Assembly: GCA_033763455.1 (NCBI GenBank)
Contig: JANRKO010000076.1
Coordinates: 1-64,000 of the forward strand
DNA from: Polyangiaceae bacterium
GTDB taxonomy: Bacteria > Myxococcota_A > Polyangia > Polyangiales > Polyangiaceae
Direction of reading: 5' to 3'
DNA: 64,000 nt
The notes beneath the pieces were generated by a model. That model saw only the letters and a list, made by a program, of their open reading frames with translations, was not told the origin of the DNA and ran no database searches. Positions 19,585 through 61,813 of the stretch are shown here, piece after piece; within the stretch, counting starts at the first letter, position 1, and each line of letters opens with the position of its first letter. The position numbers and the translations under genes were made by a program.

Positions 19585-19585
19585 C

Positions 19586-40585: not shown

Positions 40586-40734
40586 TTCCGCTCAGGTGAG
40601 CCTACATCCGACACATCATTGGTCATTTTTGCAAACACGCTCAATCCCAAGCCTTCCTTGCCGTTGGCTAGTTGGCAGCATTTCGGAGGGGTGGGGAATT
40701 GAAAGATCGTGTGCCAGGCAGTATCCGAGAAAGT

Positions 40735-42009: not shown

Positions 42010-42016
42010 GCGTGAG

Positions 42017-44215: not shown

Positions 44216-44397
44216 AGATCCTCTACACGTACATTGGGACCGGCCAGCGACTCAATAGTTAATTGTATGCAGGGCGCATCCAATCTCTCCCGCTCCGGCC
44301 GGACGGGCATGGCCGGGCTTGTTCCAATGTGAGAATCAGGCTAGCCTTTGGCGATTTTTTACAGATGGGCGTGGGGTTTAGAAAGCGAGAATTCCGA

Positions 44398-45198
44398 ATG
44401 AAAAAGGCACTTTCATGGAGGGCAGCTCTGCTTGCCACGATGGCCGTTACGGGCGCAGGTTTCGGTGCGGCGGCGTGCTCTAGTGACTCAGACTCGGCAG
44501 CCGGCGCTTCTGGGGCCGGCCTGGGCGGTGCCTCAGCAAGCTCCGGCGGAAGTAGCTCGAATGCCTCTTCCGGTGGGACTGCCCAGAATCCCTCTTCCGG
44601 CGGGGCTACCCAAAATCCTTCTTCCGGCGGAGCTAACCCCGCTGCTGCGGTTGGCGGAGTTAGCTCCTCCGCAGCCGGGGGAACAGCGTCGGCAGCAGGC
44701 GGCGCGACCAGCAACGGAACGGCTCCCGCCAAGTTCGCTCTCTGTGCCGCGTGTCACGGCGCAACCGGGGAGGGTACGGCGCTGGCACCCGAGGCCCTCC
44801 ACCCCGATGCGGCGTACGCGGAGTGGCTCGTGCGCAACGGAATGCCAGCGCGCAACGGCTGGATGGCCATGCTTGCGATGGACGAGAGCGTAATTACAGG
44901 TCCGGAGCTTCAGGAGATCATCGCGTTTCTCAACGCCCCGCCCCGCCCAACCGAAGGCAAAGCCATGTATGAGGACTACTGCATTCATTGCCACGGCAGC
45001 AAAGCCGAGGCGGGAGGCGGTGGCTTGAGCGACGCATACATCAAGGGCTTGGACGCCGGTCTCTTCCTGGAGGGCGTGCGTAAGGGTGACGTGACGGGAA
45101 CGCCGGCGACTCGAAACGTGTATATGCCCCCGTTCCCTAGCAACTTGATCTCGGATGCGGATGTAGAAAAGATCCGCGTGTACACACAGGGCCTTTGA
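44398..45198 (+). CDS. Di-haem c-type cytochrome lipoprotein
   Basis: Lipobox AAAC; Ser/Gly linker; CAACH and CIHCH, each followed by a candidate distal Met. Confidence 0.85.
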   Translation: MKKALSWRAALLATMAVTGAGFGAAACSSDSDSAAGASGAGLGGASASSGGSSSNASSGGTAQNPSSGGATQNPSSGGANPAAAVGGVSSSAAGGTASAAGGATSNGTAPAKFALCAACHGATGEGTALAPEALHPDAAYAEWLVRNGMPARNGWMAMLAMDESVITGPELQEIIAFLNAPPRPTEGKAMYEDYCIHCHGSKAEAGGGGLSDAYIKGLDAGLFLEGVRKGDVTGTPATRNVYMPPFPSNLISDADVEKIRVYTQGL

Positions 45199-46145
45199 GC
45201 TGCGTGGGGAGCTTCCACGTTAACGCTAAAGCCGCGTTGAGGTTGGGTTGGGTGCTGGCCCTACTTCTAGGGCCTGCATGCCGTCCGGACTCGCAGCAGA
45301 CCTTGCCCGTAGCGCCCGCGTCGGCTTCAGCCGTTGCTCCTGGTGTGCGCGTGGCGAATACGGCGAATACGGCGAATACGGCACCCGCTCGATCGCCCTC
45401 CCCAGCACCTGGGCCAGTGCGGCGCCCAACTCAAAAACCTCCGAAGCGCGTTCTCTTTGTGGGTAACAGCTTTGTGCACTCCGGACCCCTCCCGGAAGTG
45501 CTGGGGCTCCTGGTGAAGAGTGCACAGATTTCAGATGTTAGCCTGGAAATGAGTGCTGAAAGCGGTTGGTCCTTGGCTGATCACCGCAAGAGCCAAGCTA
45601 CTCTCGCCAGCCTCGACAAGCCCGGCTGGGACGTGGTGGTCTTGCAGGATCAGTCGACGCGCCCCACCGCCAAGATGGGTAAGCCGGAAGAATTTCGCGA
45701 CGATGCTTTGTGGCTCATCGAGCGCTTGCGCCAGAAGAGCCCAAAGGCGCGTGTGGTGCTGTTTCAGACCTGGGCTCAGCACCCGAGTGCTTGGGTCTAC
45801 CAAGAGCACTATAAGGATTTCGCGTCGATGACGGAGGATCTCCGGCGTGGCTATGTTGGCGTCGTGGAAGCTTACGTTCGCAAGTTTGGCACGGAAGAGC
45901 CGCAACTCGTACCGGCGCTAGCCCGCGTGGGCGACGCTTGGGAGCGTTATCTGGCGCAACCTGGGGCTTTGCGTCTTCATGGGCAGGACGGCGTCCATCC
46001 GAGTGATGCGGGTAAATACCTGAACGCCCTGGTATTTTTTCGAGTGCTCTATCAGCGCCCAACGGCCAAGCTAGTAGGCTGGACACTTCCGCAGGCAGAC
46101 GCTGCTGCATTACAGGCGCTTGCAGATAGCCTGCCTGACGAGTAG
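45195..46145 (+). CDS. SGNH-hydrolase-like lipoprotein (DUF4886-like)
   Basis: VLFVGNSF, WDVVVLQDQS, QTWA, DGVHPS. Confidence 0.78.
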   Translation: MSCVGSFHVNAKAALRLGWVLALLLGPACRPDSQQTLPVAPASASAVAPGVRVANTANTANTAPARSPSPAPGPVRRPTQKPPKRVLFVGNSFVHSGPLPEVLGLLVKSAQISDVSLEMSAESGWSLADHRKSQATLASLDKPGWDVVVLQDQSTRPTAKMGKPEEFRDDALWLIERLRQKSPKARVVLFQTWAQHPSAWVYQEHYKDFASMTEDLRRGYVGVVEAYVRKFGTEEPQLVPALARVGDAWERYLAQPGALRLHGQDGVHPSDAGKYLNALVFFRVLYQRPTAKLVGWTLPQADAAALQALADSLPDE

Positions 46146-46173
46146 CAACGTATCGCCTGCAGTCGCACACGCC

Positions 46174-47706
46174 CTAGGCGTTCTCTTTACGCGCACGCTT
46201 ACTGAGTGCTCCGCGCGCCAGGCGTATCAATTCGGAAGCGTGGTTCCGGGCGACCCAAAAAGCCGTTGCCACGTACGCAGCGGCGCCGGCACCAATTTCC
46301 AAACCGAGCCTTAACAAGGCGTTCAGATCAGAAGGCACGAGGTAACGCACGCCCCACACGGCAGCGGCAAGCGGGACGCACGCCAAGAGCGGACGGAGCA
46401 TCGGGCCGATCAGGTCCGTGGGCGAGATGTTGTCGGCGCGTCGGACCAACAGGGAAGCCGCTAGGGCATGCGCGCCAAAAGCCAAACCCACCGCGGCACA
46501 CGCGGCGAGCTCACCCATGGGTGAAAGCAATGCAATGAAACCCACGATGCCCAGCGCCTTGATGGCTTGGAGTGCGAAGATCTGCCCTGTTCGAGCGCCC
46601 GCGAGAAGGTACGAAGAAAGCAGCCAACCCAATGGGCGGACCACGGATAGAACCGAGAGCACCATCAACAGGGGAGCTATTCCCTGCCACTTGGCATCAA
46701 ACAGAGTCTCTACGAGCGTGGCCGCCACAGCCCCCAGCCCTACGGCTAGCGGAAACACCAAAAGGGCCAGCAGGCCCCCTGCGCGAACGAGACCACGCTT
46801 ACGCTCCTCAGGATCGGTCATGCGAGAGAACGATGGCAACAACACGTCGCCGATGTGCTCCCCGACTTGAGCGGCCGGAACGTCCGCGAGGTTGTAGGCC
46901 AAGCTATAACGCCCAGCTGCGTCCGTCCCAAAAAGGGCTGCGAACATCAGATTGTCCCAGCGCCGTGAGCCGATATCTAGGACCGCTGAGCCACCGAAGG
47001 GAAGGCCGAATCGCAACAGCTTCTTCACTTCCTCGAGCCGAAGCCGGACGGGAGTTAACCAGTCAGCAAAATTGACTGAAAAGGTTACGATCGCAGCAAC
47101 TAGAATGTCCCGCCCGAGCGCTGCTACCACCAGGCTCATCGCCCCAAACTGATTGAAGGCCAGCAGTAGGGCTGAGGCAGCATAGGTGAATTCCCCTGCC
47201 ACTTGGCTCAGGCCAATAACCCTGAACCTCATGTCTCGAACCAACAGGCGCGTGGGGATCCCCCCGATTCTTTGGCAGGCGATCCCTGCGGCGAACCAGG
47301 GGATGTACTCGGTAACGCCAGGCTCTCCGAACCAAGCGCCCAACGGTGCGGCCAGCGCGCACGCGCACGCGACGGCCAAGGCCGCCGCACTCAAGTAGAT
47401 AACGCTCGCGTGGAAAGCGACGTCTCGCCCGGCCTTGGGGAAAGCCACCAGATAGTGGCCGACGCCAAGTGTGGAAACGCTGTTGACGGTCAGCAAGATG
47501 ACCGACGCCACCGAAACGGCGCCGAACGCCGAGGGCTCGATGAAGCGGGTAAGGACCAGCGTACTTGCTAGGCCAACTGCCCGGGATCCGATGCTACTCG
47601 TGATGGTCCACATAGCACCGAGAGCCGCCTTGTAGCCGAGTGACACGAGTTGCAGTCCTAACGCATAGGCGCGCAGAGAGCTATACGCCAGCGCGGGTGG
47701 TACCAT
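46174..47706 (-). CDS. Wzx-type polysaccharide flippase (start uncertain)
   Basis: LTRFIEPSAFG, RDMRFR, FG..W++WLA, LLRFGLP, AGRYSLAYNL; many TM segments. Confidence 0.88.
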   Translation of the reverse strand: MVPPALAYSSLRAYALGLQLVSLGYKAALGAMWTITSSIGSRAVGLASTLVLTRFIEPSAFGAVSVASVILLTVNSVSTLGVGHYLVAFPKAGRDVAFHASVIYLSAAALAVACACALAAPLGAWFGEPGVTEYIPWFAAGIACQRIGGIPTRLLVRDMRFRVIGLSQVAGEFTYAASALLLAFNQFGAMSLVVAALGRDILVAAIVTFSVNFADWLTPVRLRLEEVKKLLRFGLPFGGSAVLDIGSRRWDNLMFAALFGTDAAGRYSLAYNLADVPAAQVGEHIGDVLLPSFSRMTDPEERKRGLVRAGGLLALLVFPLAVGLGAVAATLVETLFDAKWQGIAPLLMVLSVLSVVRPLGWLLSSYLLAGARTGQIFALQAIKALGIVGFIALLSPMGELAACAAVGLAFGAHALAASLLVRRADNISPTDLIGPMLRPLLACVPLAAAVWGVRYLVPSDLNALLRLGLEIGAGAAAYVATAFWVARNHASELIRLARGALSKRARKENA

Positions 47707-47980
47707 TCACGACGGTCGCTGAAAAGGCGCGCGGCGCAGCTCACACCTTAAATAGGACGACAGCTCCTCCCCTGATCCGGCGGTAAGGCGCGGCACTGGT
47801 GTGTAAGTGATCAAAAGAGCTCCATAGTTATTGAAAGAGGTCGTCACCTTATTGGTTGGATGCCCACCCCGGATTAGGGTCCACACAGACCGATTGCTCT
47901 TGAAGGAAGGACCCGCTATTTACCGAAGGCGGCTGTCCCTCGCGCAGAGTGCGACCAAGCGGCAACAAGGAAGGCATAAC

Positions 47981-48922
47981 GTGCGAATATTGGTAACCGG
48001 TGGGGCAGGTTTTATTGGGAGCCACGTTGCTGAGCAGGCGAAGGAGGCTGGCCACGAGGTTGCAGTGCTCGACAATCTCTCGACAGGGAAACGCGCGAAT
48101 GTCCCGGCGGGCGTCGAGCTTCTGGAGGTCGATCTGCGCGATCGAGAGGCAACTCGAAACGCGGTGCTGAAATTCAAACCCCAGGCTGTCAGCCACCAAG
48201 CCGCTCAAGCCAGCGTAAGCGTGAGCGTGCGTGAACCCAAGCTCGATGCGGATGTCAACATCAGCGGCGGCTTGAACCTGCTTGACGCTTGCGCCGAGGC
48301 TGGCGTCGAGCGAGTGGTGTTTGCTAGTACTGGTGGCGCCATCTACGGGGAGGTGCCGGAAGGGTCCCGGGCCACGGAGCAAACGCAGCCTTCCCCCATC
48401 AGCCCCTATGCCATCAGCAAGCTAACGCTCGAGCATTACCTCGGGTTCTACGAAGCCTACCGCAAGATCCAGCGGGTGATCCTGCGGTACGCCAACGTTT
48501 ACGGGCCACGCCAAGATGCGCACGGGGAAGCCGGAGTGATTGCGATTTTTCTCGAACGTGCCTTGCACGGCGAAGCTCTTCAAGTGAACGCCATGCGAGA
48601 AGAGGGCGATGCGGGTTGCGTTCGCGACTATACCTACGTGACGGACGTTGCTCGCGCCAACGTATTGGGCTTGTTGGGTAAGCTCGAGGCCAATGTCATG
48701 AATATCGGCACCGGTGTGCCCACTACGACGCTTGAGCTCGCACGCGTAGCGTTTCAGGCTGCAGGTCGCACCTGTAAGGTCGTCCATGCCAGCAAACGCG
48801 CTGGCGATATTGAGCGATCTTTGCTCGACCCAACGTTGTGTCAGCGTGCACTCGGCGAGCTGGTCGGGCTCGGCGTTGGCTTGACTGCCACCGCGGAATG
48901 GTACCGAAGCCAGGCCGGGTGA
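47981..48922 (+). CDS. NAD-dependent epimerase/dehydratase (UDP-glucose 4-epimerase-like)
   Basis: ILVTGGAGFIGSH, STGGAIYG, YAISK, LRYANVYGPRQ, RDYTYV; GTG start with RBS GGAAGG. Confidence 0.92.
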   Translation: MRILVTGGAGFIGSHVAEQAKEAGHEVAVLDNLSTGKRANVPAGVELLEVDLRDREATRNAVLKFKPQAVSHQAAQASVSVSVREPKLDADVNISGGLNLLDACAEAGVERVVFASTGGAIYGEVPEGSRATEQTQPSPISPYAISKLTLEHYLGFYEAYRKIQRVILRYANVYGPRQDAHGEAGVIAIFLERALHGEALQVNAMREEGDAGCVRDYTYVTDVARANVLGLLGKLEANVMNIGTGVPTTTLELARVAFQAAGRTCKVVHASKRAGDIERSLLDPTLCQRALGELVGLGVGLTATAEWYRSQAG

Positions 48923-48943
48923 CGCCTGGCTAGCCTCATCGGC

Positions 48944-49975
48944 TTAGGTTCGTGATTCCACCAGCAACCGCTCGATAATCTGGATCACGGGCATCGGATA
49001 GAGCTCACGCCCGCGATCGTAGTGGTGGTGCATTCCGGGTGTTGTGTTCACCTCGTTGATAGCACCCCTCGTTTCAGCCAAGGGCAGCTCAATATCGGTC
49101 GTGATCACGTCCACGCCGAGCAGGCGTGAGCCGACCACCTGCGCCGCTTGCTCCACCTGCTTTACTAGGCTTGGATGGACATGGTTGACGGTGTAGTCGT
49201 AGACAGTTCTTAAGCTGGGGCCCACGCGTTCTGCGCTTGGGATACCCCTTGCCAGTACGGAACCTGGAGCAGGTACGCTCGAAAGATCGAGCTTTTGCGC
49301 ACGTAGCGTGAAGTCGCAGTTGGCATCTTTCGGTATGCCTGCTTGCTCCAGCAAGGTTTCGACGCGGGTATGTCCGTCGGCCCTTAATCGCAGCCCAGTG
49401 CGTCGTCGCGTGTGTACGAGCCGTCCGTCAAATACGAGTAAGCGAAAGCACTCACCGGGTATCATCTCTTCAATCATCAACTGCTGGCCGTGGATGGAGG
49501 CCAGTACCGCTGCCGGGCGTACCTGGGCGGGTTCGGTGACGTGCAGTGTGACGCCCTGCCCGCCATAGCCGTCTGCGGGCTTGATGACACAGCCGAGAGC
49601 GTGTTTTGCGAGAAAGGAGCGGGCCGCGTCCAACTGGTTCAGATCGAAGGCCAGGTGCGCCGGCACGGGGAGCCCTTCTGCCTGGAGCAGCCGATGCACG
49701 AGGGGCTTTCTTACCGCCAGTTCTAGGACCACCGGATGGTCGATCGGCAGTAGCTCTCCTACGAGCCGTAGGCGTTGTTGCCCACGCCTCAACTCCCAAA
49801 TATCGGGACCGAGCTCCAAAAACTCCGCGTGGACGGCCGTCGCGACAGCACGCCAAAGCGCACGGTACTCATCCACCCGGTCGTACACGTAACCTGTACC
49901 GCGCAAGTCGCGAATCTGTTTTTGAAGGCGGCGCGCGAGCCTTTCAGCCTGGAGAATGCGGCGCGTTTCGAACAT
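48944..49975 (-). CDS. ATP-grasp ligase, cyanophycin-synthetase/GshB-like subtype
   Basis: GLPVP, VIKPADGYGGQGV, IEEMIPG..FRLLV, LGVDVIT, INEVNTTPG. Confidence 0.82.
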   Translation of the reverse strand: MFETRRILQAERLARRLQKQIRDLRGTGYVYDRVDEYRALWRAVATAVHAEFLELGPDIWELRRGQQRLRLVGELLPIDHPVVLELAVRKPLVHRLLQAEGLPVPAHLAFDLNQLDAARSFLAKHALGCVIKPADGYGGQGVTLHVTEPAQVRPAAVLASIHGQQLMIEEMIPGECFRLLVFDGRLVHTRRRTGLRLRADGHTRVETLLEQAGIPKDANCDFTLRAQKLDLSSVPAPGSVLARGIPSAERVGPSLRTVYDYTVNHVHPSLVKQVEQAAQVVGSRLLGVDVITTDIELPLAETRGAINEVNTTPGMHHHYDRGRELYPMPVIQIIERLLVESRT

Positions 49976-49999
49976 CTCAGAGCTTTAACCCGCAGCGAA

Positions 50000-51178
50000 T
50001 CAAGCCGTACCGCGAACTGACTTGAGCATCCACAGCGCCATCTTCTTGGCGAAGCGTTGACCACACACGAGGCCAGGCAAAGGATCCGCTGGGTTCATCC
50101 AGGCCGTTTCTTGAACGGTGCCGTAAGACTTCACCCACTTGAGGACGTCCAGCGTGCCTTCTTTGTAGTAGTTCAAACTGGAGACCAGATCGAAATCCTC
50201 GATTACCCAGCGCCGCCCTTCGATGGCGGGGCTCTCGGGTACGGCTTGGCCTGTAAGATCGAGGTAAAGGGCCCTCGCTACGTCCATGCCATTTTCGGCA
50301 ACGAAGATCCTCATCGCCTGGCCGAGCCGTGGATTGATATCCAAGACTTTGTATTGGCCGTCACGTGGATCTAGCCGATAGCCAATATCGAGGATGCCCT
50401 GGTAGCCCACCGCCTGCATGAGCCGGATGGTTTGATCGGCAACCGTTTGGTTGGTGCGGCACTCCCCGAGTGATGCGCAGCCTTTGTGCACCGGGAATTG
50501 GCGCAGCTTGTGGCCTGTATAGCCAGCCAAACACTTGCTCTGCGCGTTGAAGTACCCGTTGAAGATGTACACCTGGTCGTCATCCCCAGGGATCATTTCC
50601 TGCAGCATTAGGTTGGGGACTTCCGGGTCTTCGTACTTCTCATACTCCGAGACCAAATCCTCCCGCGCAGCAACGGGCACCATGCGCTCGCCCGTGCGCT
50701 CCTGCATGCGATCCCCGCGGATGCCTTTCAGCATGACGGGAAAGCGAAGGTCGTCGAGCGCCGCGATGACATCTTCGACGTTCTGAGGAAAAAGCGTGGT
50801 CGGCACGGGAACTTGGTGCTCGAGCGCAAGCTCATACATCCGGCGCTTGTCGGCCAAGCCATGCACCAAATCCCCAGAATTATACGGGAAGATGAAGTGC
50901 TCTCGAAGGGCTTCCCGGTTGCGCGCGACGAAGATCGAAAGCTCGTCGGACGTCGGAATGAGGATCGCTTTTCGCCCGATGTCGCGAGCGATTCGCAGCA
51001 GCAGCGCCAAGTAATCCTCGGGGGCGTTGCGATTGAACTGCTGGATATAGCTCTGCTTGCAGTAGCGCGAACGCAACGCGGGCGAGTCCGGATCGGCCTC
51101 AACAGCGTACAGATCAATACCATACGGCCCCAGGCTACGCAGGATAGCGTAGCCTCCGAGTTGACAGCAGATGATCAC
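50000..51178 (-). CDS. ATP-grasp carboxylate-amine ligase (D-aspartate ligase-like)
   Basis: AILRSLG, SRY, LIPTSD, DKRRMY, FPVMLK, QEMIPG, KLRQFP, DPRDGQYKVLDINPR. Confidence 0.85.
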   Translation of the reverse strand: MIICCQLGGYAILRSLGPYGIDLYAVEADPDSPALRSRYCKQSYIQQFNRNAPEDYLALLLRIARDIGRKAILIPTSDELSIFVARNREALREHFIFPYNSGDLVHGLADKRRMYELALEHQVPVPTTLFPQNVEDVIAALDDLRFPVMLKGIRGDRMQERTGERMVPVAAREDLVSEYEKYEDPEVPNLMLQEMIPGDDDQVYIFNGYFNAQSKCLAGYTGHKLRQFPVHKGCASLGECRTNQTVADQTIRLMQAVGYQGILDIGYRLDPRDGQYKVLDINPRLGQAMRIFVAENGMDVARALYLDLTGQAVPESPAIEGRRWVIEDFDLVSSLNYYKEGTLDVLKWVKSYGTVQETAWMNPADPLPGLVCGQRFAKKMALWMLKSVRGTA

Positions 51179-51240
51179 AACTGGGGTAGTTGTGTCGGCA
51201 ATGGGCGGTCGCTTGGAAGTCAGAGTGGGCTCTATTTGGC

Positions 51241-51978
51241 TTAGGATGCGTTGACGTCGACCATCGCTCCGCCCTTGAATATGGGCACCAGCTTAAGATC
51301 GTCGATGTTGCTCAGGACGAATTCAAGGTCGAAAACCTGACCTGAACGCCGCAAGTAGTCTGCGCTTTTGCCTTCGCGAATTGGTTGCAGATCGGAGTTG
51401 TGCCAACGGTCCACCAAGGCACGCGTTTTGTCGTCTTCAGCTTCGAATCCGGCAGCCAATAGCTTCTCTGCAATCCAGGCGCAACCAAGTTGATCTTCGC
51501 GTCGGAACTCGCCGCGTGTACCGGCACCGATAAGAGCCACCCGATCGTGGTGCCTTGCCAGGTGCTCGGCCATGGCGCTGTAGTTGCGTAGGCACCCGGC
51601 GTAGGTGGCGTCGCTATTCTTGGCGTCCAGCAGCAAAGGTACCCCAGAGGAAGAGGTCAAGATGATCGGCCGCTCCGGAGCCGTGAAAGCCCCACCGTTG
51701 ACGGTACTCAAAGCGGTTACCAAGACTGGGCTGTTGGTAAGATCATACCCGTACGGAACGTTCCCGCCGAGCTCACCGACGAGCAGCGGCTTATCGAGCA
51801 ACCGAGCCATGGCGGCGGCTTCATCGGTCGATCTCGCGGGATAGATGCGGCGACCCAGACTGAGGGCAGTTAGAAGAGTGGTCGTGGCGCGGATAACGTC
51901 CACGGCGACTACTGCGCAGCCTTTGCCATACTTTTCGGCACTGGCAGCGAAGCAGTCAATAACGACGGTGCGAGCCAT
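51241..51978 (-). CDS. comB: 2-phosphosulfolactate phosphatase
   Basis: VAVDVIRATTT, GELGG, YDLTNSP, LTSSSG, GCLRN, EDQLGC; directly downstream of comA. Confidence 0.85.
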   Translation of the reverse strand: MARTVVIDCFAASAEKYGKGCAVVAVDVIRATTTLLTALSLGRRIYPARSTDEAAAMARLLDKPLLVGELGGNVPYGYDLTNSPVLVTALSTVNGGAFTAPERPIILTSSSGVPLLLDAKNSDATYAGCLRNYSAMAEHLARHHDRVALIGAGTRGEFRREDQLGCAWIAEKLLAAGFEAEDDKTRALVDRWHNSDLQPIREGKSADYLRRSGQVFDLEFVLSNIDDLKLVPIFKGGAMVDVNAS

Positions 51979-52010
51979 ACAGCTAATTCCCTTGTGTTTC
52001 GAGTAGCGCG

Positions 52011-52820
52011 TTACTTCTTCGGACCGAGCGGCCGCAGGTTATCGCGTCGGAATGCATCAGAGTGTAGGCCGCGACGATAGATCTCCACGCGCAGCAGCTC
52101 TTCCAGCCGAATGTTGCACAAGCCCACTTCCGGACCGAAGTGATCCAGCAACGCGAACTGGCTGCGCTTGTTGGGAGCTTCGAACATGAGCTTGCTCATC
52201 CCAAGCGCCTCTACTAGCTCGTCCGCGCCGGCAGCGTTAAACTTCCCGGTGCTGTCGAAAAGGCCTACATCTTGCGCACTTTCGCGAGCTTCTACGACAA
52301 GCTCCACAGCGCCCGCACCCAGCCACTCTTTACCCTCTTCGATCAGCTCCTTGAGCTGTGCGGGGGTCATGGGCCCGGTGTGCTTCTCGCCGATTTCATA
52401 CTGCACCTCGAGGCCGATCTTCTCGCCCAGCCGACAGATCTCTGCGGGCTTGAGATTGGTGTGCGTGAAGCCTTGGCCGGCCTCAAAGCGCGTGAGGCCA
52501 ACGTCCTTGCACAACTCGAGGTACTTTTCGACGACGCCGAAGGTTGCGGCAACCTCAAAGGGCCCGCCGCCCGCGCAGGTCTTCACGCCCAGTCGATTGG
52601 CGGCTGCGATCTTCTTGCGAGTGGCAGCTTCGCCAGCGATTTGCCAGCACGCCATGGAGATCTTGAGCACCGACATGAGATGCGCGCTTTGCTCCAGATG
52701 GCTCTCCGTGGTCGCTGGATCGTACCCGGGGTCGAATGGGCTGGTCCGCTTCGGGAGCGACCGAACGCCAATCAATTGCAAGTAGGAGTTGAGACTGCCG
52801 GTATTGGTGGGTGATGTCAT
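52011..52820 (-). CDS. comA: Phosphosulfolactate synthase (divergent)
   Basis: DPG, GGGPFE, EIGEK, VVEARES, FEAPNKRSQ..FGPEVGLCNI, E.YRRGL.SD. Confidence 0.85.
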   Translation of the reverse strand: MTSPTNTGSLNSYLQLIGVRSLPKRTSPFDPGYDPATTESHLEQSAHLMSVLKISMACWQIAGEAATRKKIAAANRLGVKTCAGGGPFEVAATFGVVEKYLELCKDVGLTRFEAGQGFTHTNLKPAEICRLGEKIGLEVQYEIGEKHTGPMTPAQLKELIEEGKEWLGAGAVELVVEARESAQDVGLFDSTGKFNAAGADELVEALGMSKLMFEAPNKRSQFALLDHFGPEVGLCNIRLEELLRVEIYRRGLHSDAFRRDNLRPLGPKK

Positions 52821-52985
52821 GGTGTTACTCGACGAATCGGTGTTGCAAGGTCAGTGTCGCAGAGCGAAAGGAAGACCCAAGCTCGCGACGTACCATACGG
52901 CGACGCAGGCGGAGGACGCAAGAGCCACAACACGTGTGTACAAATGCGGCTTGCCAAGGATCGCGCCATGGAGCAGCCTCGTGAT

Positions 52986-53021
52986 GATAGGCTCGGGATA
53001 GAAAGAAGATAGGCTCGGGAT
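52986..53021. promoter_or_regulatory. 14-bp direct repeat GATAGGCTCGGGAT x2 (22-bp period) in divergent intergenic region
   Basis: Perfect copies at 52986-52999 and 53008-53021. Confidence 0.5.
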
Positions 53022-53046
53022 GAAACAGGCGCTGGTCGGCTAACAG

Positions 53047-54168
53047 ATGTCACGAGTTCTCTTGTTAAGTGATGAAGAAGCCAGGGGGCTTCTTTGGTGC
53101 GCCAAGTCCGGCGGCCACACCGTCTTCGTCGCGGGGGATGCGGCCAGGAACCGGGCACTTTCGGTGAGCCCCAAGTGCGACGGCTTCTTCGGGCTCCCGC
53201 CCGAGCTGTCGTTTGCCGAAGCCTCCCCGGAGCTGGCCGAGGAAGTGTTGCGGGTGGTTCTCCGCGAAAACATCGAGGTCGTCGTTCCGTCCAGCTTCGA
53301 AAGCTTGAAGTTCCTCGTCCTTCACCGCGCGCGCTTCGAACAGGTCACACGCCTAGTACCCCTGAGCGACCTAAGTATTATCGAAACCCTGGACGACAAG
53401 TTCAAGTTCTATGAGTTCTGCGTCGAGCACGGTCTACCGCACCCGCGCTCGCTCCTATTAGCAAGCGCCGAGGATCTCGAGAGCGGGCAGATTGAGAGCC
53501 TGGAGTTTCCGTTGCTGTCAAAGCCGTTGCTCGGTGCGGGGGAAAAAGGAATTGAGAAGTTCGAATCGCTTTCCGCCCTGCGTTCACGCGTCAAGAACGC
53601 GGAGCCTGGTTTTTTCCCGGTGCTGATTCAGGAATGGTTTGAAGGCGAGGACATCGACTTCAATGGCTACGCCCTGCACGGAAAGGTGGCCGTGTGGTCG
53701 GTCATGAAGACGACCTATTTCGGCCCATCGGCAGAGCCCGTTCGCTTGACGCAATTCGTGCGCAACGAACGCGTGGAAGCCCTGGGTCGGCAGATCGTCG
53801 AGCGGGCAGGGTTCACGGGCCCACTCAACGTGGACATGCGCATTCGCAAGAGTGATGGGCAGGTCCTTCTTATCGAAGTCAATCCGCGATTTTGGCACCG
53901 GAGCGTCACCTCGCTCATCGACGGGCTCAATTTCGTGGATGCTGCGATTCGGCTCAGCACCGATCCGGCGTGGCGTGCCAGTTCCAAGTGCGAAGAGGTC
54001 GAGTGGGCGTCGAGTATCGGGTTGTTGCTGCGCTCCGCGATACTGCAGCGGAACAAGGAGGCCTGGCAGCATTTGTCCCGGTTGAGCGGCGTGCAGCTCA
54101 GGTATCAGTTGCATGATAAGGCCGTGAACCTGTTGGCTCGGGCACGCGCGACGCTGCGACCGGCGTAG
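53047..54168 (+). CDS. ATP-grasp domain protein
   Basis: LDDKFKFYEF..GLPHP, FPLLSKPLLGAGEKGI, IQEWFEG, NVDMR, LLIEVNPRF. Confidence 0.85.
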   Translation: MSRVLLLSDEEARGLLWCAKSGGHTVFVAGDAARNRALSVSPKCDGFFGLPPELSFAEASPELAEEVLRVVLRENIEVVVPSSFESLKFLVLHRARFEQVTRLVPLSDLSIIETLDDKFKFYEFCVEHGLPHPRSLLLASAEDLESGQIESLEFPLLSKPLLGAGEKGIEKFESLSALRSRVKNAEPGFFPVLIQEWFEGEDIDFNGYALHGKVAVWSVMKTTYFGPSAEPVRLTQFVRNERVEALGRQIVERAGFTGPLNVDMRIRKSDGQVLLIEVNPRFWHRSVTSLIDGLNFVDAAIRLSTDPAWRASSKCEEVEWASSIGLLLRSAILQRNKEAWQHLSRLSGVQLRYQLHDKAVNLLARARATLRPA

Positions 54169-54179
54169 GCATTGGCTAT

Positions 54180-55304
54180 TTGAGGATGCGATCCGCTTTC
54201 GTGGGCAGAGCACTGACAGTCTTTCAGCGGTTGATGACCGCATTGGAGCGAGTGAGCGCGCCCGGGCTGCTGTTCACCGCCGCAGCCTTTCTACTGCTCA
54301 CGTTGTTTCCTTGGATGCCCTTGAATCCGTTCGCCGCTTCGCGCTTCGAGGAGGTGCCGGGCGGCGGTATTAGCTTCGAGAAGCCCAGCCTCTTTCGCTC
54401 GGCGTGGGCGCCTGATTTTGCGCGATCCGCCGCTATGCGCGAGGGCCGGCTCAGCGTGGAGTTCGATGTTCTGCCAACGTTCTTCGAGCAAGATGAGTCC
54501 TCGCGCATCCTTTCGTACTCCGCGGACGAGGCGAACCCCATCTTCACGATAGCCCAGCGCCGGGGCGATCTGCTGTTGGGCTACAAGAACGACAGCAATT
54601 ACGTGCTCGGCCTTTTCGAGTCGAACGTTCGCCATCACTACGTCCTAGTCCTCGAAGGTGGCCGCGTTCACGTTTACGTAGATGGGGCGCATTGGCGCAC
54701 CGAGCCGTTCTACGGGAAAGACATTCCTTGGGGTGAAGGCTTCATCTCCCTGGCCAATGAGATCACCGGGGATCGGCCATTCGTGGGGAACATCTATGGC
54801 CTGCGCCTGTTCGATCGGCCGCTGACGCCCACGGAGGCCTCGGGCCTTTTCCGCCGGGAGGTACCTCCGGTACCGCACCTGGCGCTACGGCATGATGTGA
54901 ATGGTCAGAAGCTGACCTTCGTAGGGTCAGGCCTCGCTGATCTTCCGCTCGAAGTTGAAGCTTGGCCGTTTATCTGGAAGTGGCGCTTGCCCCTGCCAGC
55001 GCCTGTCACCAATGCGCAATATTGGCTCGACGTTGTGCTCAATGTCATTGCAACCATGCCTGTCGGCGCCTGGGGCTTGGCATGGCTACTCCGGCGGGGT
55101 CGACCAGCCTGGCAAGGGATCCTGATGGCATCTGGGTTTCAGTTCGTGCTTTCGCTCCTGGCCGAAGCGTCCCAGTTCTTCTCCATGGGCTTCCGCTTTG
55201 GGAGCTGGCTCGACGTTGTAGTCAACGTGAGCGGCGCAGTGCTAGGAGGCGTGCTCTGGTTAGGCCTGACGCGAGGGCTCGCTCGATCCGAAGGCACCCG
55301 TTAG
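54180..55304 (+). CDS. VanZ-like membrane protein with inserted LamG-like domain
   Basis: TLFPW..; HHYVLV..VYVDG..LANE..F.G.I..LRLFDRPLT LamG; DVVLNVIATMPVG..AEASQ..DVVVNVSG VanZ. Confidence 0.75.
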   Translation: MRMRSAFVGRALTVFQRLMTALERVSAPGLLFTAAAFLLLTLFPWMPLNPFAASRFEEVPGGGISFEKPSLFRSAWAPDFARSAAMREGRLSVEFDVLPTFFEQDESSRILSYSADEANPIFTIAQRRGDLLLGYKNDSNYVLGLFESNVRHHYVLVLEGGRVHVYVDGAHWRTEPFYGKDIPWGEGFISLANEITGDRPFVGNIYGLRLFDRPLTPTEASGLFRREVPPVPHLALRHDVNGQKLTFVGSGLADLPLEVEAWPFIWKWRLPLPAPVTNAQYWLDVVLNVIATMPVGAWGLAWLLRRGRPAWQGILMASGFQFVLSLLAEASQFFSMGFRFGSWLDVVVNVSGAVLGGVLWLGLTRGLARSEGTR

Positions 55305-55316
55305 CGGAGGTAGAAC

Positions 55317-56234
55317 GTGGGTTGGAAACGAAAGTGGGCACAAGATACCTTGAAGGCGGCGCTGCCGTTTCAAGACTCATTGAGGCAGCTCAAACGCCGC
55401 CTCCTTCCATATCAGACCCATCCGGGCTTTGACGAGTTCACCTTCGAGCAGGGGCTTGAGCAGGTGCGGCTTTTGGCGGAGGCAGGTGCGCCGCTCGCGG
55501 GTAGAACGGTGCTTGAGTTGGGCACTGGCTGGCAACCTCTAATCCCTCTGCTGTACCGAGTTGCTGGCGCCGCGCACGTAACGCTCACCGATCAGGAGCG
55601 TTTGATGGACCCCCACACTGTGGCCAATGCCGCGGCCTTCTTGCGGCAGCGCCGTGCTCGAATCATCGAATGTCTTGGCTTGACGGAGGTGGACTTCGAA
55701 AAGCGGCTTCAGCTGCCTACCACCACGGATCTGAGCTCGCTGCTCGATCACCTCGACATGAGCTACCTGGTTCCGTACGAGATCGACCGTACGCCGACCG
55801 CTTCGGTGGACGTGGTGACCTCTCGCGCCGTGTTGGAGCATATTCCACCGAAGGTGATCGAGGGGCTCTTGGTCGGCTTCCGGAGGATTTTGAAGCCGGA
55901 GGGTGTCACCTGCCATATCGTCGATAATTCCGACCACTGGGAACACAAAGACAAGAGCATATCGCGCGTCAATTTCCTCAAGTTCGACGACTGGATGATC
56001 GGCGTCTTGGGCCTGAATGTGCAGAATTACCAGAACCGGTTGCGGCACTTCGAGTACTTGGAGTTGGTGCGTCGCGCGGGGTACGATGTGATCAAAGAGG
56101 TGGGTGTCGTAGATGAATCCGCGCTTGCCGCCGTCTCGGGTCTGAAGTTATGTGCGCGCTACGCTGACCGTTCGCCACAAGAGCTTGCGATTCTCACGTC
56201 TTACATCGTGGCACGGGTGCGCCCGCAAGCATGA
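55317..56234 (+). CDS. Class I SAM-dependent methyltransferase
   Basis: VLELGTGW, VDVVTSRAVLEHI, ILKPEG, VDNSDH, NRLR. Confidence 0.85.
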   Translation: MGWKRKWAQDTLKAALPFQDSLRQLKRRLLPYQTHPGFDEFTFEQGLEQVRLLAEAGAPLAGRTVLELGTGWQPLIPLLYRVAGAAHVTLTDQERLMDPHTVANAAAFLRQRRARIIECLGLTEVDFEKRLQLPTTTDLSSLLDHLDMSYLVPYEIDRTPTASVDVVTSRAVLEHIPPKVIEGLLVGFRRILKPEGVTCHIVDNSDHWEHKDKSISRVNFLKFDDWMIGVLGLNVQNYQNRLRHFEYLELVRRAGYDVIKEVGVVDESALAAVSGLKLCARYADRSPQELAILTSYIVARVRPQA

Positions 56235-56247
56235 GCCTACGACGGCG

Positions 56248-57279
56248 TTAGCCCATGTTGGGCAAGGTCAGCCGGGCCTGAAATAGTGCGAGCGGCTCAC
56301 TCTTATCCATAGCGAGCCTTTGGATGCCGAAGCGTTGCCCTCGCTGCAACCTACGGTTTATCCCGGTGTCGTTGCTGAAGCCGGCGCCGTAGCCGGCGTT
56401 GGCTACAGCCTGGCACAAGTCCGGACGCTCATCGATCACAAACCCGACAGGGTACGCAAGCGTGCGCACGGGTTTCCCCAATTCGCTCTCCAGCTTCATT
56501 CGGCAACCCAAGAGCTCTTCGCTCAGCTCGGTTGGCGTGAGGGTTTGCAGGACGCGATGGCTGCGGGTGTGGCCCTCCACGTCCATTCCCGCACTTGAGA
56601 GCTCACGAATCTCGTCCCAAGTCATGATAAGCTCGTCGGCGAGAATGCGTTCTCGCTCCCGGTCGAGCGGCACCTTCGCGCGTTCAGCAAGGTGTGTGAC
56701 GAAGGTGCGCACGTCGATGCCGTAGGTTTCTTTTGCCAACCGGAGCAGGAGCGCAATGCTGGCCGTCCGGTCGCTCAAGTCGAGCCGCAGCGGATTCGGG
56801 TAGCTCAACTCGATAGCCGCCTCAGTGGTGCTCTTGAAGACGTAATGGATGATGTCCCACCAGAAGAGGCGCCGTTCCTCGACGTAATCGGTGGCAATAA
56901 AGAACGTCGCAGGCAGCCCGTGGCGTTGCAGCAGGGGAAATGCGACTTTGTGGCAGCTTTTGTAGCCGTCATCGAACGTAATGAGCACAGCGTTGGGTGG
57001 GAGCCGGCCGCCCCCAAGCGCAGAAAGTACGTCGTCTATCCGAACCACACTGCAGTGTTTGCGCAGTATCCTAAGCTGTGCGTCGAAGCTTTCGGCGGTC
57101 GCGTCCACAACTTCCGGGTCAAAGGGGTAATCGGGCCTAACCGTCCCCACGCTGTGGTACGTGAGCACCGTCAGGGATTGCGCGCCGCTCAGCCGCCGAA
57201 GACGAAAAGCGGCGTCGAGCGCCCCGAGTCGACCCAAAGTTGTGGCCAAGAGTGCTTTTTTTCCTCTGATCGGGGGCAT
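56248..57279 (-). CDS. Polysaccharide deacetylase (NodB/IcaB-like)
   Basis: LTYH, LITFDDGY, MTWDEIREL, GHTRSH, LAYPVG. Confidence 0.9.
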   Translation of the reverse strand: MPPIRGKKALLATTLGRLGALDAAFRLRRLSGAQSLTVLTYHSVGTVRPDYPFDPEVVDATAESFDAQLRILRKHCSVVRIDDVLSALGGGRLPPNAVLITFDDGYKSCHKVAFPLLQRHGLPATFFIATDYVEERRLFWWDIIHYVFKSTTEAAIELSYPNPLRLDLSDRTASIALLLRLAKETYGIDVRTFVTHLAERAKVPLDRERERILADELIMTWDEIRELSSAGMDVEGHTRSHRVLQTLTPTELSEELLGCRMKLESELGKPVRTLAYPVGFVIDERPDLCQAVANAGYGAGFSNDTGINRRLQRGQRFGIQRLAMDKSEPLALFQARLTLPNMG

Positions 57280-57416
57280 GGAATTTCATGGTTATAGCGG
57301 TTTTTTCGAGCGCCGTAGCCCCCATGAGGCTCGGCTTGGATACCCGAATGCAAAGAAATCCACGCGGTGACTTCGTGTGAATCCTCCCTTGCAGCGCAAA
57401 AGTCGCCGTACTAACG

Positions 57417-59210
57417 ATGTTAAGGATGGCGCAGGATGTTCCGAGCACAAGTCGGCGGCCTCCGCCCGTGCAGGTGCTTGGTGAGCGGCTCGGGGGAGGC
57501 AAGAGGCATCGCGCATTTCTTGAAGTTCGCAGCGATGCGAACAACGAGCAAAGCGTGGTCGGCTTGGTGCCTGGCCGCCATGTGGTTGGGCGCAACGCGG
57601 ATCTCCACATTCATCTTCCGCACCATAGCGTGTCTCGAATCCATGCCGAGTTCGTTTCCGATCCATCCGAACGCTGGTGGATTCATGACCTTGGGAGCAC
57701 CAACGGCACCTACGTGAATGGAACGCCGATCGGGCAACGGCTGCTCAGTCCGGGTGACGTTATCGTGGTTGGCGAATACACCCTCCGCTACCGAGTTCCG
57801 TCCGAGGAGGGCCAGGACATCAATCGAACCATGCCGCCACCCGGCCTGGGTCATGACATGACCCCGGCTACCATGCGGTTCAGAGCTGTCAGCGAGACGG
57901 ATTTGGCTGGCCTGAGACTGCTGACTGCCAGCGAATTCGCGAGAGAGGTGATTGAGCTTGAGGACAAACGTGCGCGCCTGAAGCGCCTTTGCGAGTACAT
58001 GATTGGGGACACGTTGAGTGGCTTGTGTGCTTGTGTTGCACGGCTCCGCCAGGGGGCCCGGCCGCAGATCCATACTGGCCCCTACAATCGGCCGCTGGTG
58101 GTCAGCGAGGGTTCGATGAGAACTCGGAGCCAGCTGGAAGATATGCTGGCGATTGACCAGGAAGAATTCTTTCGCCAGCCCAACGTTACCCACCCCCTCT
58201 CCACCAGAACGGGTGCGGCAGGCAGCATTCTCATCCTAGGCTGCACCATTGATGCGGTCGATGAGGGCTACGATGTGCTGTTTGTGGAGCTCCAGGGCTT
58301 CTGCATCGCCTCGGAATGGAGCCCTCTTCTGAGCTTGTTCGCCGATAGCTACCGTCAGGCCAATGTGGTCTGGGAAATGCGGCAGCATGCGCGGCTGACC
58401 GCCATGGTGGATCGCGAATTGGAAATGGCACGCCAGATCCAGGAAAGCCTCGTCCCCAAAGCGCCACATATCGAAGGCTTGGATCTTTCGATTGGGTTTG
58501 AGCCCTGCCAGTGGGTGGGGGGAGATTACGTGGACGCCGTGCGACTGGCAGACGGTCGGGTGCTGCTCATCATGGCGGACGTTTGCGGCAAGGGCCTTCA
58601 AGCGTCGCTCATTGCTTCAAGCTTGCACACGTTTGTCCATGCGCTCTCGGATGCAGATCTACAGCTGCCGGAGCTCGTGGACAGGATGAATAAATATCTT
58701 TGCCACTACCTGCCGGAACACTCCTTCGTTACCGCGGTGTGCATTGCGTTCGATTCCAAGAGCGGTCGGCTTGAGTGCCTGAATGCCGGGCATCCGCCCG
58801 CTATCCTCGTCTCATCCACAGGTAGCGTTCGGTTCTTGCAGTCTGGCGACAACGTCGCCCTGGGCATGATGGAGGACATGCGGCCCGTCGCCGAAAGCTA
58901 CGATATGGACTTTGGTGACGTCCTCTTACTTTACACCGACGGCGTAACCGAAGCTGAGGATTCGAACCGAGCACCGTTGGGTGGGAACCGGATAGCGACT
59001 GAATTCGCGCGTATCGTGTCCGATCTTCCGGATGCCCCTGCCGATACCATGCAGCGTCGCCTTTCCCAGACGGTGACGATGCATCGCGGCTCCTCCATGG
59101 CGGCCGATGACACCACCTTGCTCATTGCCAGGCGCAGCCGCCCAAGCGGGGCGCCCCGCGCGAGCAACCAAGAAGGCCGTACCAGTCGGCCCCCACCCAA
59201 GCCGCTGTAG
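57417..59210 (+). CDS. FHA + PP2C (SpoIIE/RsbU-type) phosphatase
   Basis: VGR..SVSRIHA..DLGSTNGT; ELEMARQIQ, VGGDYVD, ADVCGKG, NAGHPP, LYTDGVTE, DDTT. Confidence 0.9.
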   Translation: MLRMAQDVPSTSRRPPPVQVLGERLGGGKRHRAFLEVRSDANNEQSVVGLVPGRHVVGRNADLHIHLPHHSVSRIHAEFVSDPSERWWIHDLGSTNGTYVNGTPIGQRLLSPGDVIVVGEYTLRYRVPSEEGQDINRTMPPPGLGHDMTPATMRFRAVSETDLAGLRLLTASEFAREVIELEDKRARLKRLCEYMIGDTLSGLCACVARLRQGARPQIHTGPYNRPLVVSEGSMRTRSQLEDMLAIDQEEFFRQPNVTHPLSTRTGAAGSILILGCTIDAVDEGYDVLFVELQGFCIASEWSPLLSLFADSYRQANVVWEMRQHARLTAMVDRELEMARQIQESLVPKAPHIEGLDLSIGFEPCQWVGGDYVDAVRLADGRVLLIMADVCGKGLQASLIASSLHTFVHALSDADLQLPELVDRMNKYLCHYLPEHSFVTAVCIAFDSKSGRLECLNAGHPPAILVSSTGSVRFLQSGDNVALGMMEDMRPVAESYDMDFGDVLLLYTDGVTEAEDSNRAPLGGNRIATEFARIVSDLPDAPADTMQRRLSQTVTMHRGSSMAADDTTLLIARRSRPSGAPRASNQEGRTSRPPPKPL

Positions 59211-59258
59211 CGAAATCGCGCGTGCGCACTGGAGCAGACACACCTAGGCTCCGTTTCC

Positions 59259-60968: not shown

Positions 60969-61813
60969 CCGCTTTTTCCCCCACCGCCGCCCGCCTCGCC
61001 CTTTCGATCGACGTCGAGGATTGGTTTCAGGTCGAAAATCTACGTGCGGCAGTGCCAGCTTCCAGCTGGTCCCAACGGGAATTGCGTGTTGAACAAAACA
61101 CAGCTCGGATGTTGCAAGCGCTCTCCGAACAGAATGTGCGCGGTACCTTTTTCGTGTTGGGCTGGGTTGCGGAGCGTTGCCCCGAGCTCGTACGTCGCAT
61201 CGTAGCGTCCGGCCACGAGTTGGGCTGTCATGGCTACGGGCACGACCTGTTGAACAAACTCACGCCGGACGCATTTCGGGAAGACCTAAAGCGTGCCAAG
61301 GGCCTGCTGGAGGAGCACACAGGCTCGCGCGTGCTCGGCTATCGCGCGCCCAGCTTTTCCATCACCGATTGGGCCATTGATGTGTTGAAGGAGGAGGGGT
61401 TTGCTTATGATTCCTCTGCCTTCGCGACAGTGGCTCATGATCGTTACGGAAAGCTGCAAGGCTTGGAGCGAGGGGAACCGATTACCGAGCTTCGGGACGA
61501 TTTCTACGAGGTCTCTATCTCCAGCTTGAACGTATTCGGACACAGCTTGCCCTGGGGAGGTGGAGGTTACTTTCGACTCCTTCCGTACGCAGTGTTCAAG
61601 ACTGGCATTCGCGAGATCCTGCGGCGAGGCGACCCTTACATTTTCTATATCCATCCGTGGGAGATTGATCCGGCTCAACCGCGCGTCCAGGTGAGAGCAA
61701 GCTACGCGTTTCGCCACTACCTCAATTTGGATCGCTGCTTCGCTCGCTTCCAGGCGCTGCTCTCTGACTTTCGCTGGGGTACCATCCGAGAGCTCCTGCC
61801 GGCCGAGCGTTAG
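60965..61813 (+). CDS. Polysaccharide deacetylase, PEP-CTERM/XrtA-locus subfamily (DUF3473)
   Basis: [56 protein letters not shown]. Confidence 0.9.

Follow-up and report, generated by a model that had tools for sequence, protein, structure and literature searches.

A comA–comB–ATP-grasp cassette in a polysaccharide locus of a Polyangiaceae bacterium: a candidate pathway for sulfolactyl decoration of glycans

The window analysed here is a stretch of 64,000 nucleotides from Polyangiaceae bacterium (GenBank assembly GCA_033763455.1, contig JANRKO010000076.1, positions 1 to 64,000, forward strand). Between positions 48944 and 54168 it carries a small group of genes in which homologs of two coenzyme M enzymes stand beside ATP-grasp ligases. 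These are comA (52011–52820; 269 amino acids), a phosphosulfolactate synthase homolog; comB (51241–51978; 245 amino acids), of the 2-phosphosulfolactate phosphatase family; and two ATP-grasp ligase genes, here called AG2 (50000–51178; 392 amino acids) and AG1 (48944–49975; 343 amino acids). All four lie on the minus strand and form a tight operon, comA-comB-AG2-AG1, with intergenic gaps of 32, 62 and 24 bp. A third ATP-grasp gene, AG3 (53047–54168; 373 amino acids), lies on the plus strand and is transcribed divergently from comA across a gap of 226 bp. A check of the open reading frames (ORFs) in the window confirms all of these genes at their coordinates. An initial annotation, made from the sequence without database searches, had described this operon with its divergent third ligase, and had placed the block between a Wzx/epimerase pair on one side and deacetylase and glycosyltransferase genes on the other. 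The ORFs, gaps and profile matches bear out the first point, and the profile matches of the flanking genes the second. That annotation also suggested that the enzymes decorate a surface glycan with sulfolactate; the evidence bearing on this suggestion is set out below.

ComA catalyses the addition of sulfite to phosphoenolpyruvate (PEP) to give phosphosulfolactate, from which ComB releases sulfolactate; these are the first two steps of the archaeal coenzyme M pathway. In the window, both family assignments are clear: ComA matches PF02679 (E 3.8e-43, 148.1 bits against a cut-off of 25.2) and ComB matches PF04029 (E 5.4e-36, 124.3 bits against 26.4). ComA aligns over its full length with Methanocaldococcus jannaschii ComA (1qwg; residues 28–258, E 2.6e-24) and, more weakly and in part only, with Bacillus subtilis YitD (1u83; E 4.9e-13); ComB matches PDB entries 2yyv and 1vr0 at about 1e-13, likewise over its full length. 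Both proteins share roughly a third of their residues with the archaeal enzymes that have been characterised. The polar residues are well kept. Among 62 aligned ComA sequences of the clade, K53, E89, E113, E142, K146, E177, R179, E180, E214, K218 and Q221 are invariant, and all are identical in the alignment with 1qwg; K146 would correspond to the catalytic lysine of the solved enzyme. Among 64 aligned ComB sequences, the invariant D27, R30, E69, S83, P84, R159, E161 and D162 are likewise identical in the alignments with solved ComB proteins. On this comparison both enzymes look functional, the two reactions named above being predicted for them.

The whole genome holds one ComA match and one ComB match. 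The initial annotation had reported that comC and comDE are missing from the window; for ComC (PF02615) and ComD (TIGR03845) this extends to the entire 93.7%-complete genome, in which neither has a match, with ComE and the bacterial Xcb route not searched for. Of 40 cassette-bearing genomes, just two have a ComD match that exceeds the family cut-off. These two ComD-type (sulfopyruvate/phosphonopyruvate decarboxylase) matches, each in an ORF of about 400 amino acids, lie in the Nitrospirota genomes of loci L011 and L020 (G004:C8:61277-61747 and G010:C12:180264-180734). With neither ComC nor ComD matched in the genome, the cassette is therefore not expected to serve coenzyme M synthesis. A role in this pathway, or in building a pool of sulfolactate, would be suggested by the position of ComA and ComB as its first two enzymes, and by Bacillus subtilis, whose YitD and YitC make the sulfolactate of spores; it is nevertheless scarcely credible here, given the lack of ComC and ComD matches, the rarity of ComD in other cassette genomes, the tight linkage of comA-comB to a dedicated ligase and to glycan genes, and the match to YitD, which is weaker than that to archaeal ComA. 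A spore-coat role, also raised by the initial annotation, finds no support. Homologs of the reductases for 3'-phosphoadenosine 5'-phosphosulfate (PAPS) and adenosine 5'-phosphosulfate (APS) are present in the genome, and sulfite is therefore plausibly available to ComA.

Three ligases accompany the pair, and their standing differs. AG2 matches CPSase_L_D2 (PF02786, 27 bits against 19.8), with a weak match to 'carbamoyl phosphate synthase-like protein'. Its AlphaFold2 model (mean predicted local distance difference test, pLDDT, 92) has an ATP-grasp fold, to which Foldseek assigns a probability of 1.0 for both biotin carboxylase and PurK; a search of PDB sequences with AG2 returned nothing better than E 0.0014. 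By hydropathy the protein has no hydrophobic segments. Source annotations of the AG2 family read carboxylate-amine ligase, and JGI labels many relatives 'D-aspartate ligase', an automatic label. AG2 is the core ligase of the cassette and is proposed to be a sulfolactate–amine ligase, both substrates being proposed from linkage and fusions only.

AG1 matches the cyanophycin synthetase profile NF010623 (E 4e-35) in its ATP-grasp part alone, at positions 209–453 of 871, with 121 bits against a cut-off of 877. It also matches the ATP-grasp module of N-acetylglutaminylglutamine synthetase, and PDB entry 7lgm at E 8.6e-21. Cyanophycin synthetase is a protein of about 870 amino acids that combines an ATP-grasp (G) domain with a Mur-ligase-like (M) domain; AG1, with its 343 residues, comprises the ATP-grasp module only, and its identification as a cyanophycin synthetase is rejected on this ground and on its score far under the cut-off. 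AG1 probably adds an amino acid.

AG3 matches ATP-grasp_3 (E 1.5e-8) and PDB entry 2pn1 (E 6.6e-11). Its sole ortholog found (50% identity) lies in a metagenome-assembled genome (MAG) of the Hyphomicrobiaceae, in a locus with comA, comB, AG1, AG2, a CapA-like gene and Wzx; this MAG also holds locus L056. There, a CapA/PGA_cap (poly-gamma-glutamate capsule) homolog stands directly downstream of AG1-AG2 (10189–11280), which hints at a polyamide or peptide side chain in that organism. By its distribution AG3 appears as a rare add-on outside the conserved core. Within the divergent intergenic region, immediately before the start of AG3, the 14-bp sequence GATAGGCTCGGGAT is directly repeated, at 52986–52999 and 53008–53021 (22 bp apart); it may be a regulator binding site. 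A scan of 48700–53300 for promoters and terminators gave counts no higher than those in shuffled sequence.

The conservation of this arrangement was examined with ComA as the guide. A scan restricted to one genome for each species yielded 298 ComA relatives, of which the best 80 loci (55–66% identity) were examined; orthologs were counted by tblastn with the window proteins, and neighbouring ORFs were clustered and their representatives annotated with Pfam and NCBIfam. The loci are mostly MAG contigs and ORF calling was crude, with opposite-strand ORFs taking the place of comA or comB in some cluster views. comB is found in 79 of the 80 loci, and 74 encode an AG2-like ligase, whose identity is at least 39% in 70; among the ten other loci are L018, L037, L043 and L068, in which the contig ends 0.8 kb or less from comA or comB. 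AG1 occurs in 28 loci, sometimes between comA and comB, and the commonest gene order is comA-comB-AG2. The reciprocal search, with AG2 as query, gave 15 loci, 13 of them with both comA and comB, one (a 3-kb contig) with comB only and one with neither. The linkage of comA, comB and AG2 is far beyond chance. That all three ligases of the window belong to one pathway, as first suggested, thus holds in part: AG2 is core and AG1 a frequent accessory, and AG3, with its single ortholog, falls outside.

By their record titles, the 80 loci come from about 12 phylum-level groups, which we take, on our own grouping of the titles, to be Acidobacteriota, Nitrospirota, Chloroflexota, Gamma- and Alphaproteobacteria, Desulfobacterota/'Deltaproteobacteria', Gemmatimonadota, Zixibacteria, Actinomycetota, Planctomycetota, Bacteroidota, Binatota and one 4.4-kb contig labelled Bathyarchaeota. 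Glycan genes are found in 61 of the 65 loci of at least 12 kb, 54 by recurrent families and a further seven of the other 11 by Pfam (L006, L025, L026, L032, L036, L042 and L048). In the gene-order strings the cassette runs in the same direction as the genes for priming transferases, glycosyltransferases, Wzx and exporters. The expectation that comA, comB and an ATP-grasp gene would recur near glycan genes without ComD is thereby borne out. Among the recurrent families, counted over all 80 loci, are priming sugar transferases (21), glycosyltransferases of family GT4 (19), polysaccharide exporters (13), UDP-glucose dehydrogenase (13), UDP-GlcNAc 2-epimerase (10) and NusG-like proteins (14). Other neighbours counted in this way are polysaccharide deacetylases (19 loci, plus 11 of the XrtA type), DegT aminotransferases (10), two clusters of FemAB-like transferases (9 and 6) and two of S-adenosylmethionine (SAM)-dependent methyltransferases (25 and 14; 39 loci with either). 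LarA-N homologs occur in 15 loci, and D-2-hydroxyacid dehydrogenases adjoin the cassette in six. In two Gemmatimonadota loci a deacetylase directly follows AG2.

Natural fusions of AG2 bring the ligase and its possible partners together in one polypeptide. An ESM Atlas structure search had pointed to methyltransferase and deacetylase fusions; of 139 longer AG2 relatives found, the best 120 (41–57% identity) were considered, and a second search used a Gemmatimonadota AG2 as query, the fused orthologs overall being 39–57% identical. Some carry a second ATP-grasp domain (P0006, P0007, P0013, P0014), and in an AG2-AG1 fusion (P0016) the C-terminal half matches the window's AG1 along its entire length with 37% identity. 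Others carry a FemAB-like PF13480 domain (P0018, P0025, P0031, P0073). Eleven clusters of 1214–1241 amino acids join AG2 to a Wzz/GNVR/AAA_31 tyrosine-kinase co-polymerase of the Wzc type; from hydropathy, the AG2 part is predicted to be cytoplasmic, before the first membrane segment. There are also fusions to UDP-glucose dehydrogenase (P0145), to adenylation-carrier modules and to flavin monooxygenases. The initial annotation had proposed an amino-acid spacer between sulfolactate and sugar, and the fusions of AG2 to AG1 and to FemAB-like domains lend this idea support.

The fusions to a deacetylase bear directly on the acceptor. Three AG2-deacetylase proteins of 680–685 amino acids (P0151, P0153, P0162) are found among the longer relatives of the Gemmatimonadota deacetylase that adjoins AG2. 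In P0162, which represents 21 clustered sequences, the N-terminal part aligns with the window's AG2 across 379 residues at 45% identity (E 2e-113), and a Polysacc_deac_1 domain spans residues 485–606; hydrophobic segments are absent. Among the remaining long relatives of the AG2-adjacent deacetylase, most carry a fused formyltransferase (the commonest partner) or FemAB-like transferase, and these fusions show a general deacetylate-then-re-acylate logic. The window has a homolog of its own: a polysaccharide deacetylase of 343 amino acids (56248–57279, minus strand; PF01522, E 1.8e-22), 32–35% identical in two segments to the deacetylase half of P0162. By hydropathy neither of the two deacetylases in the window has a hydrophobic segment, and this one is for that reason probably cytoplasmic, and a candidate for unmasking the acceptor amine. 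The earlier idea that deacetylases free the amine is directly supported by the AG2-deacetylase fusions for this type; the second deacetylase of the window is of the XrtA type, which is common to such loci in general rather than particular to the cassette.

A further clue to the acid comes from LarA. Two AG2 relatives carry a LarA-N domain (P0043, and P0124 with a methyltransferase as well), and the cassette-linked LarA homologs score best, though below cut-off, against nickel-dependent malate racemases. Sulfolactate is the sulfonate analogue of malate, and a malate-racemase-like LarA therefore fits a 2-hydroxy acid with a distal anion. In the present genome, two Lar_N matches lie on other contigs; the stronger (on contig C27) was considered as the cassette's LarA and rejected, as it shows no tblastn similarity at 1e-8 to cassette LarA or to any gene of cassette or window. 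The link to LarA also bears on a different product. Sulfolactate might be an intermediate only, converted by oxidation and transamination to cysteate, or to taurine, whose amine the ATP-grasp enzymes would then couple, in amide linkage, to the carboxylates of uronic acids. Some capsules are known to contain taurine-amidated uronic acids; the D-2-hydroxyacid dehydrogenases and DegT aminotransferases near some cassettes would provide the conversion, and a pyridoxal phosphate (PLP)-dependent decarboxylase is encoded in the window (62626–63873). The conserved core, however, includes neither dehydrogenase nor aminotransferase, the window and genome lack a ComC-type sulfolactate dehydrogenase, and the PLP decarboxylase is of a generic exosortase-A-associated type, similar to TIGR03099. 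The fusion of AG2 to LarA, a hydroxy-acid racemase, argues that the hydroxy acid itself is the substrate of the ligase, which makes a cysteate or taurine product decidedly improbable.

Taken together, these data favour, with a probability of roughly 55%, the view that comA-comB-AG2-AG1 was acquired horizontally and is one copy of a widely distributed cassette for glycan tailoring, which would ligate sulfolactate, at the expense of ATP, to an amine of a cytoplasmic glycan intermediate. ComA would add sulfite to phosphoenolpyruvate, and ComB would remove the phosphate of the resulting phosphosulfolactate to leave 3-sulfolactate. AG2, as a cytoplasmic ATP-grasp carboxylate-amine ligase, would activate the carboxylate of sulfolactate with ATP and form an amide with an amine on a polysaccharide intermediate in the cytoplasm. 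The acceptor would most likely be an amino sugar that a polysaccharide deacetylase has unmasked, or else an amino-acid spacer attached to that sugar; in the order of action that we infer for the two ligases, such a spacer would be added or extended by AG1, and in other loci by a FemAB-like enzyme. In some lineages a LarA homolog might first change the configuration of sulfolactate at C2, and a methyltransferase might add a methyl group. Wzx would then flip the finished unit, and the outcome would be an exopolysaccharide bearing carbon-bonded sulfonate, made without PAPS or sulfotransferases. The initial proposal of a sulfolactyl-decorated glycan is in this way partly sustained, by the genomic linkage and by the deacetylase and spacer fusions, with AG3 dropping out of the core.

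Several observations weigh against this interpretation. ComA and ComB are members of their families and not curated archaeal equivalogs, since they score 146.3 bits against an NCBIfam equivalog cut-off of 280 (ComA, TIGR03849) and 86.8 against 175 (ComB, TIGR00298). The best solved folds for AG2, those of biotin carboxylase and PurK, are only 12–18% identical to it; AG2 has no characterised close relative, and its substrates are therefore not readable from homology. AG2 is most often fused to a class I SAM methyltransferase (in about 107 of the best 120 of the 139 longer relatives), an enzyme that the scheme does not readily place. No single amine-making gene accompanies the cassette everywhere, and 32 of the 80 loci have a deacetylase, DegT or FemAB-like gene. 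Four loci of at least 12 kb (L013, L058, L061 and L077) have no glycosyltransferase, flippase or exporter, L061 having a FemAB-like gene only. All counts, finally, hold for this clade of ComA, the best 80 of 298.

The low equivalog scores, with an identity of about one third to the archaeal enzymes, raise the question of whether ComA and ComB have drifted to another nucleophile or substrate, so that the acid ligated by AG2 would not be sulfolactate. Such drift is improbable in view of the full-length alignments, the identity of the clade-invariant polar residues in archaeal ComA, and the near-constant pairing of ComA with ComB, as a two-step route to sulfolactate requires; the malate-racemase-like LarA linked to the cassette points the same way.

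The loci poor in glycan genes, in turn, would suit a soluble product. The cassette might make a sulfolactyl-amino acid or a short sulfolactyl peptide, which would serve as a solute, signal or chelator and would be exported by a transporter of the multidrug/oligosaccharidyl-lipid/polysaccharide (MOP) family, unattached to any polysaccharide. L013, L058 and L077 lack glycosyltransferases, and L026 and L036 are minimal loci, where comA-comB-AG2 is accompanied by a MOP transporter, LarA and a methyltransferase amid genes that are otherwise unrelated to glycans. AG1, too, resembles ligases that form dipeptides or polyamides, and genes for non-ribosomal peptide synthetases (NRPS) and polyketide synthases (PKS) lie 15 kb downstream on the contig. 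A soluble product is nonetheless unlikely when set against the glycan genes of nearly all the longer loci, the usual position of the cassette inside co-directional glycan operons, and the fusion of AG2 to a polysaccharide deacetylase, a Wzc-type co-polymerase and UDP-glucose dehydrogenase.

Even on a glycan, the bond need not be an amide. Some ATP-grasp enzymes form esters, as the microviridin ligases do, and sulfolactate might be attached as an O-sulfolactyl group to a sugar hydroxyl, or its 2-hydroxyl might be esterified to a uronic acid. The proximity of UDP-glucose dehydrogenase in 13 of the 80 loci, and its fusion to AG2 in P0145, would accord with a uronic acid, and many loci have no amine-making gene within 10 kb of the cassette. 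The fusions of AG2 to a deacetylase and to FemAB-like transferases nevertheless point to an amine acceptor, and the source annotations of the family name a carboxylate-amine ligase, so that an ester is quite unlikely.

If the sulfolactyl amide is accepted for the window, it can be extended, tentatively and with rather less assurance, to the whole set of loci. On this extended reading, at least 12 phylum-level groups, including Nitrospira, Acidobacteriota, Chloroflexota and sulfur-oxidising Gammaproteobacteria, would share a PAPS-independent route to carbon-sulfonated extracellular polysaccharides, in which an N-(3-sulfolactyl) group, optionally racemised by LarA, methylated or spaced by an amino acid, is placed on de-N-acetylated amino sugars of lipid-linked repeat units by a dedicated ATP-grasp ligase acting at the Wzc/Wzx machinery.

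The surroundings of the cassette in the window look like those of an XrtA-type exopolysaccharide locus. Downstream of AG1 lie, on the plus strand, a short-chain dehydrogenase/reductase (SDR) sugar epimerase/dehydratase (47831–48922; PF01370, E 1.1e-57), which is GalE-like although below cut-off, and, on the minus strand, a Wzx-type MOP flippase (46174–47706; PF13440, E 9.5e-45) with eight hydrophobic segments. On the other side, two plus-strand genes identified by Pfam are co-oriented with AG3: a LamG+VanZ membrane protein (54180–55304), LamG being a concanavalin-like domain, and a class I methyltransferase (55317–56234). Neither has orthologs in the 80 related loci at E 1e-5; a VanZ gene is also found near the cassette in L058. 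The methyltransferase was considered as kin of the AG2-fused methyltransferases and rejected, as it has no real similarity to them.

Beyond the deacetylase at 56248–57279, the locus continues with a protein phosphatase of the FHA-PP2C (SpoIIE) type (57417–59210), a plus-strand fusion of a GT2 glycosyltransferase with a formyltransferase (59259–60968; PF00535 and PF00551) and the XrtA-type polysaccharide deacetylase (60965–61813, plus strand), whose score of 336.5 bits exceeds the TIGR03006 cut-off of 276.2. A hexapeptide acyltransferase also belongs to the polysaccharide surroundings. The assignment to the XrtA type is made on the TIGR03006 deacetylase; the other XrtA-associated profiles fall below cut-off (TIGR03099 with 411 against 478, TIGR03098 with 454 against 592, and TIGR03100 and TIGR03101). 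The gene of the GT2-formyltransferase overlaps that of the XrtA-type deacetylase by 4 bp, and the pair suggests a second decoration, the N-formylation of a de-N-acetylated sugar. The contig beyond the window (64200–81000) encodes an exosortase-A-type acyl-CoA ligase, a 3253-residue NRPS-PKS hybrid with an aminotransferase-like region, two hydrolases of XrtA-associated type, an 1124-residue NRPS and then a second Wzx; a lipid or peptide moiety may be made alongside the polymer. Elsewhere in the window are a Ser/Thr kinase and a double-FHA protein (13097–14692 and 28596–29450), and phospho-signalling through these and the FHA-PP2C phosphatase may control the locus. Two tandem pairs of DUF1552 (HXXSHH) and DUF1592/1588/1595/1585 (PSD/PSCyt) genes, at 18175–21328 and 23133–26346, flank a LacI-type regulator, and a YhgA-like (Transposase_31) gene stands at the start of the window (199–1191).

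A match over its cut-off to the MXAN_5187 C-terminal domain, together with the gene content, points to a probable member of the Myxococcota. Among the sequencing runs listed as containing this DNA, none is of RNA; the DNA runs are sediment metagenomes, and the best of them may be the source sample.

As to the origin of the cassette, 40 relatives were searched, comprising three genomes at genus level, 21 at family level and 16 at order level; 29 of these are at least 90% complete with contamination of 5% or less. None of the 40 has a ComA match, and none has an AG2 ortholog, a paralog of 30% identity being the only similar protein. In the region 40000–59999, the same-genus genomes have only a nitrilase-family gene and part of the epimerase in common with the window, at 66–72% DNA identity, and the boundaries of an insertion cannot be drawn from this comparison. 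On these grounds the cassette, and with it the whole locus, is probably accessory and acquired.

Searches of the open-access PMC (Creative Commons) and bioRxiv literature found no description of the cassette; none of the passages on these terms in PMC11796062, PMC7324677, PMC4641369 and PMC13685921 concerns it. Its parts are known families, and the logic of deacetylation followed by re-acylation is known; the predicted sulfolactyl-decorated polysaccharide is not known. To our knowledge, the known routes to sulfur-bearing glycans use either PAPS-dependent sulfotransferases or sulfoquinovose. A sulfolactyl amide, if confirmed, would be a new, hydrolysis-resistant sulfonate decoration made straight from sulfite and PEP, and sulfolactate would thereby gain a structural function beyond its part in coenzyme M and in spores. 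Strongly anionic polymers govern the metal binding, hydration and aggregation of biofilms and their resistance to phages or grazers. Such polymers, if they are made in this way, would further add a sink, and also a source, of organosulfonates to soil, sediment and nitrifying sludge. The cassette, with three or four genes, is small and portable.

Among known systems, the archaeal coenzyme M pathway, as represented by M. jannaschii, is the closest in its opening steps: the same two families act in the same reaction order, with a full-length alignment and conserved polar residues. The present cassette differs from it in that ComC and ComD have no match, dedicated ATP-grasp ligases follow, the genes lie in polysaccharide operons, and both proteins stay below the equivalog cut-offs. 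YitD and YitC of B. subtilis are likewise a bacterial ComA/ComB pair with sulfolactate as end product and no part in coenzyme M; the similarity is weaker and partial, however, and here the product is predicted to become covalently attached. We know of no linked ligase or glycan context for the B. subtilis pair.

For the later steps, the parallels lie in the cell envelope. ATP-grasp amide ligases act on envelope polymers in the D-aspartate ligase Aslfm of Enterococcus and the capsule amidoligase Cj1438 of Campylobacter jejuni, and in these, as proposed for AG2, the enzyme couples a small charged molecule to a precursor of the cell envelope through an amide bond. AG2 differs in having no significant sequence match to a characterised ligase, and in that the acid proposed for it is a sulfonate. 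The tailoring of amino sugars by deacetylation and re-acylation is carried out by NodB and NodA in the synthesis of Nod factors. In NodB/NodA-type tailoring and in the deacetylase-formyltransferase fusions, as in the scheme put forward here, a cytoplasmic Polysacc_deac_1 enzyme frees an amine, which a fused or adjacent partner then N-acylates. The difference lies in the donor: in place of an acyl carrier, formyl-folate or aminoacyl-tRNA, the proposed donor is a sulfonated hydroxy acid in its free form, which an ATP-grasp ligase would activate.

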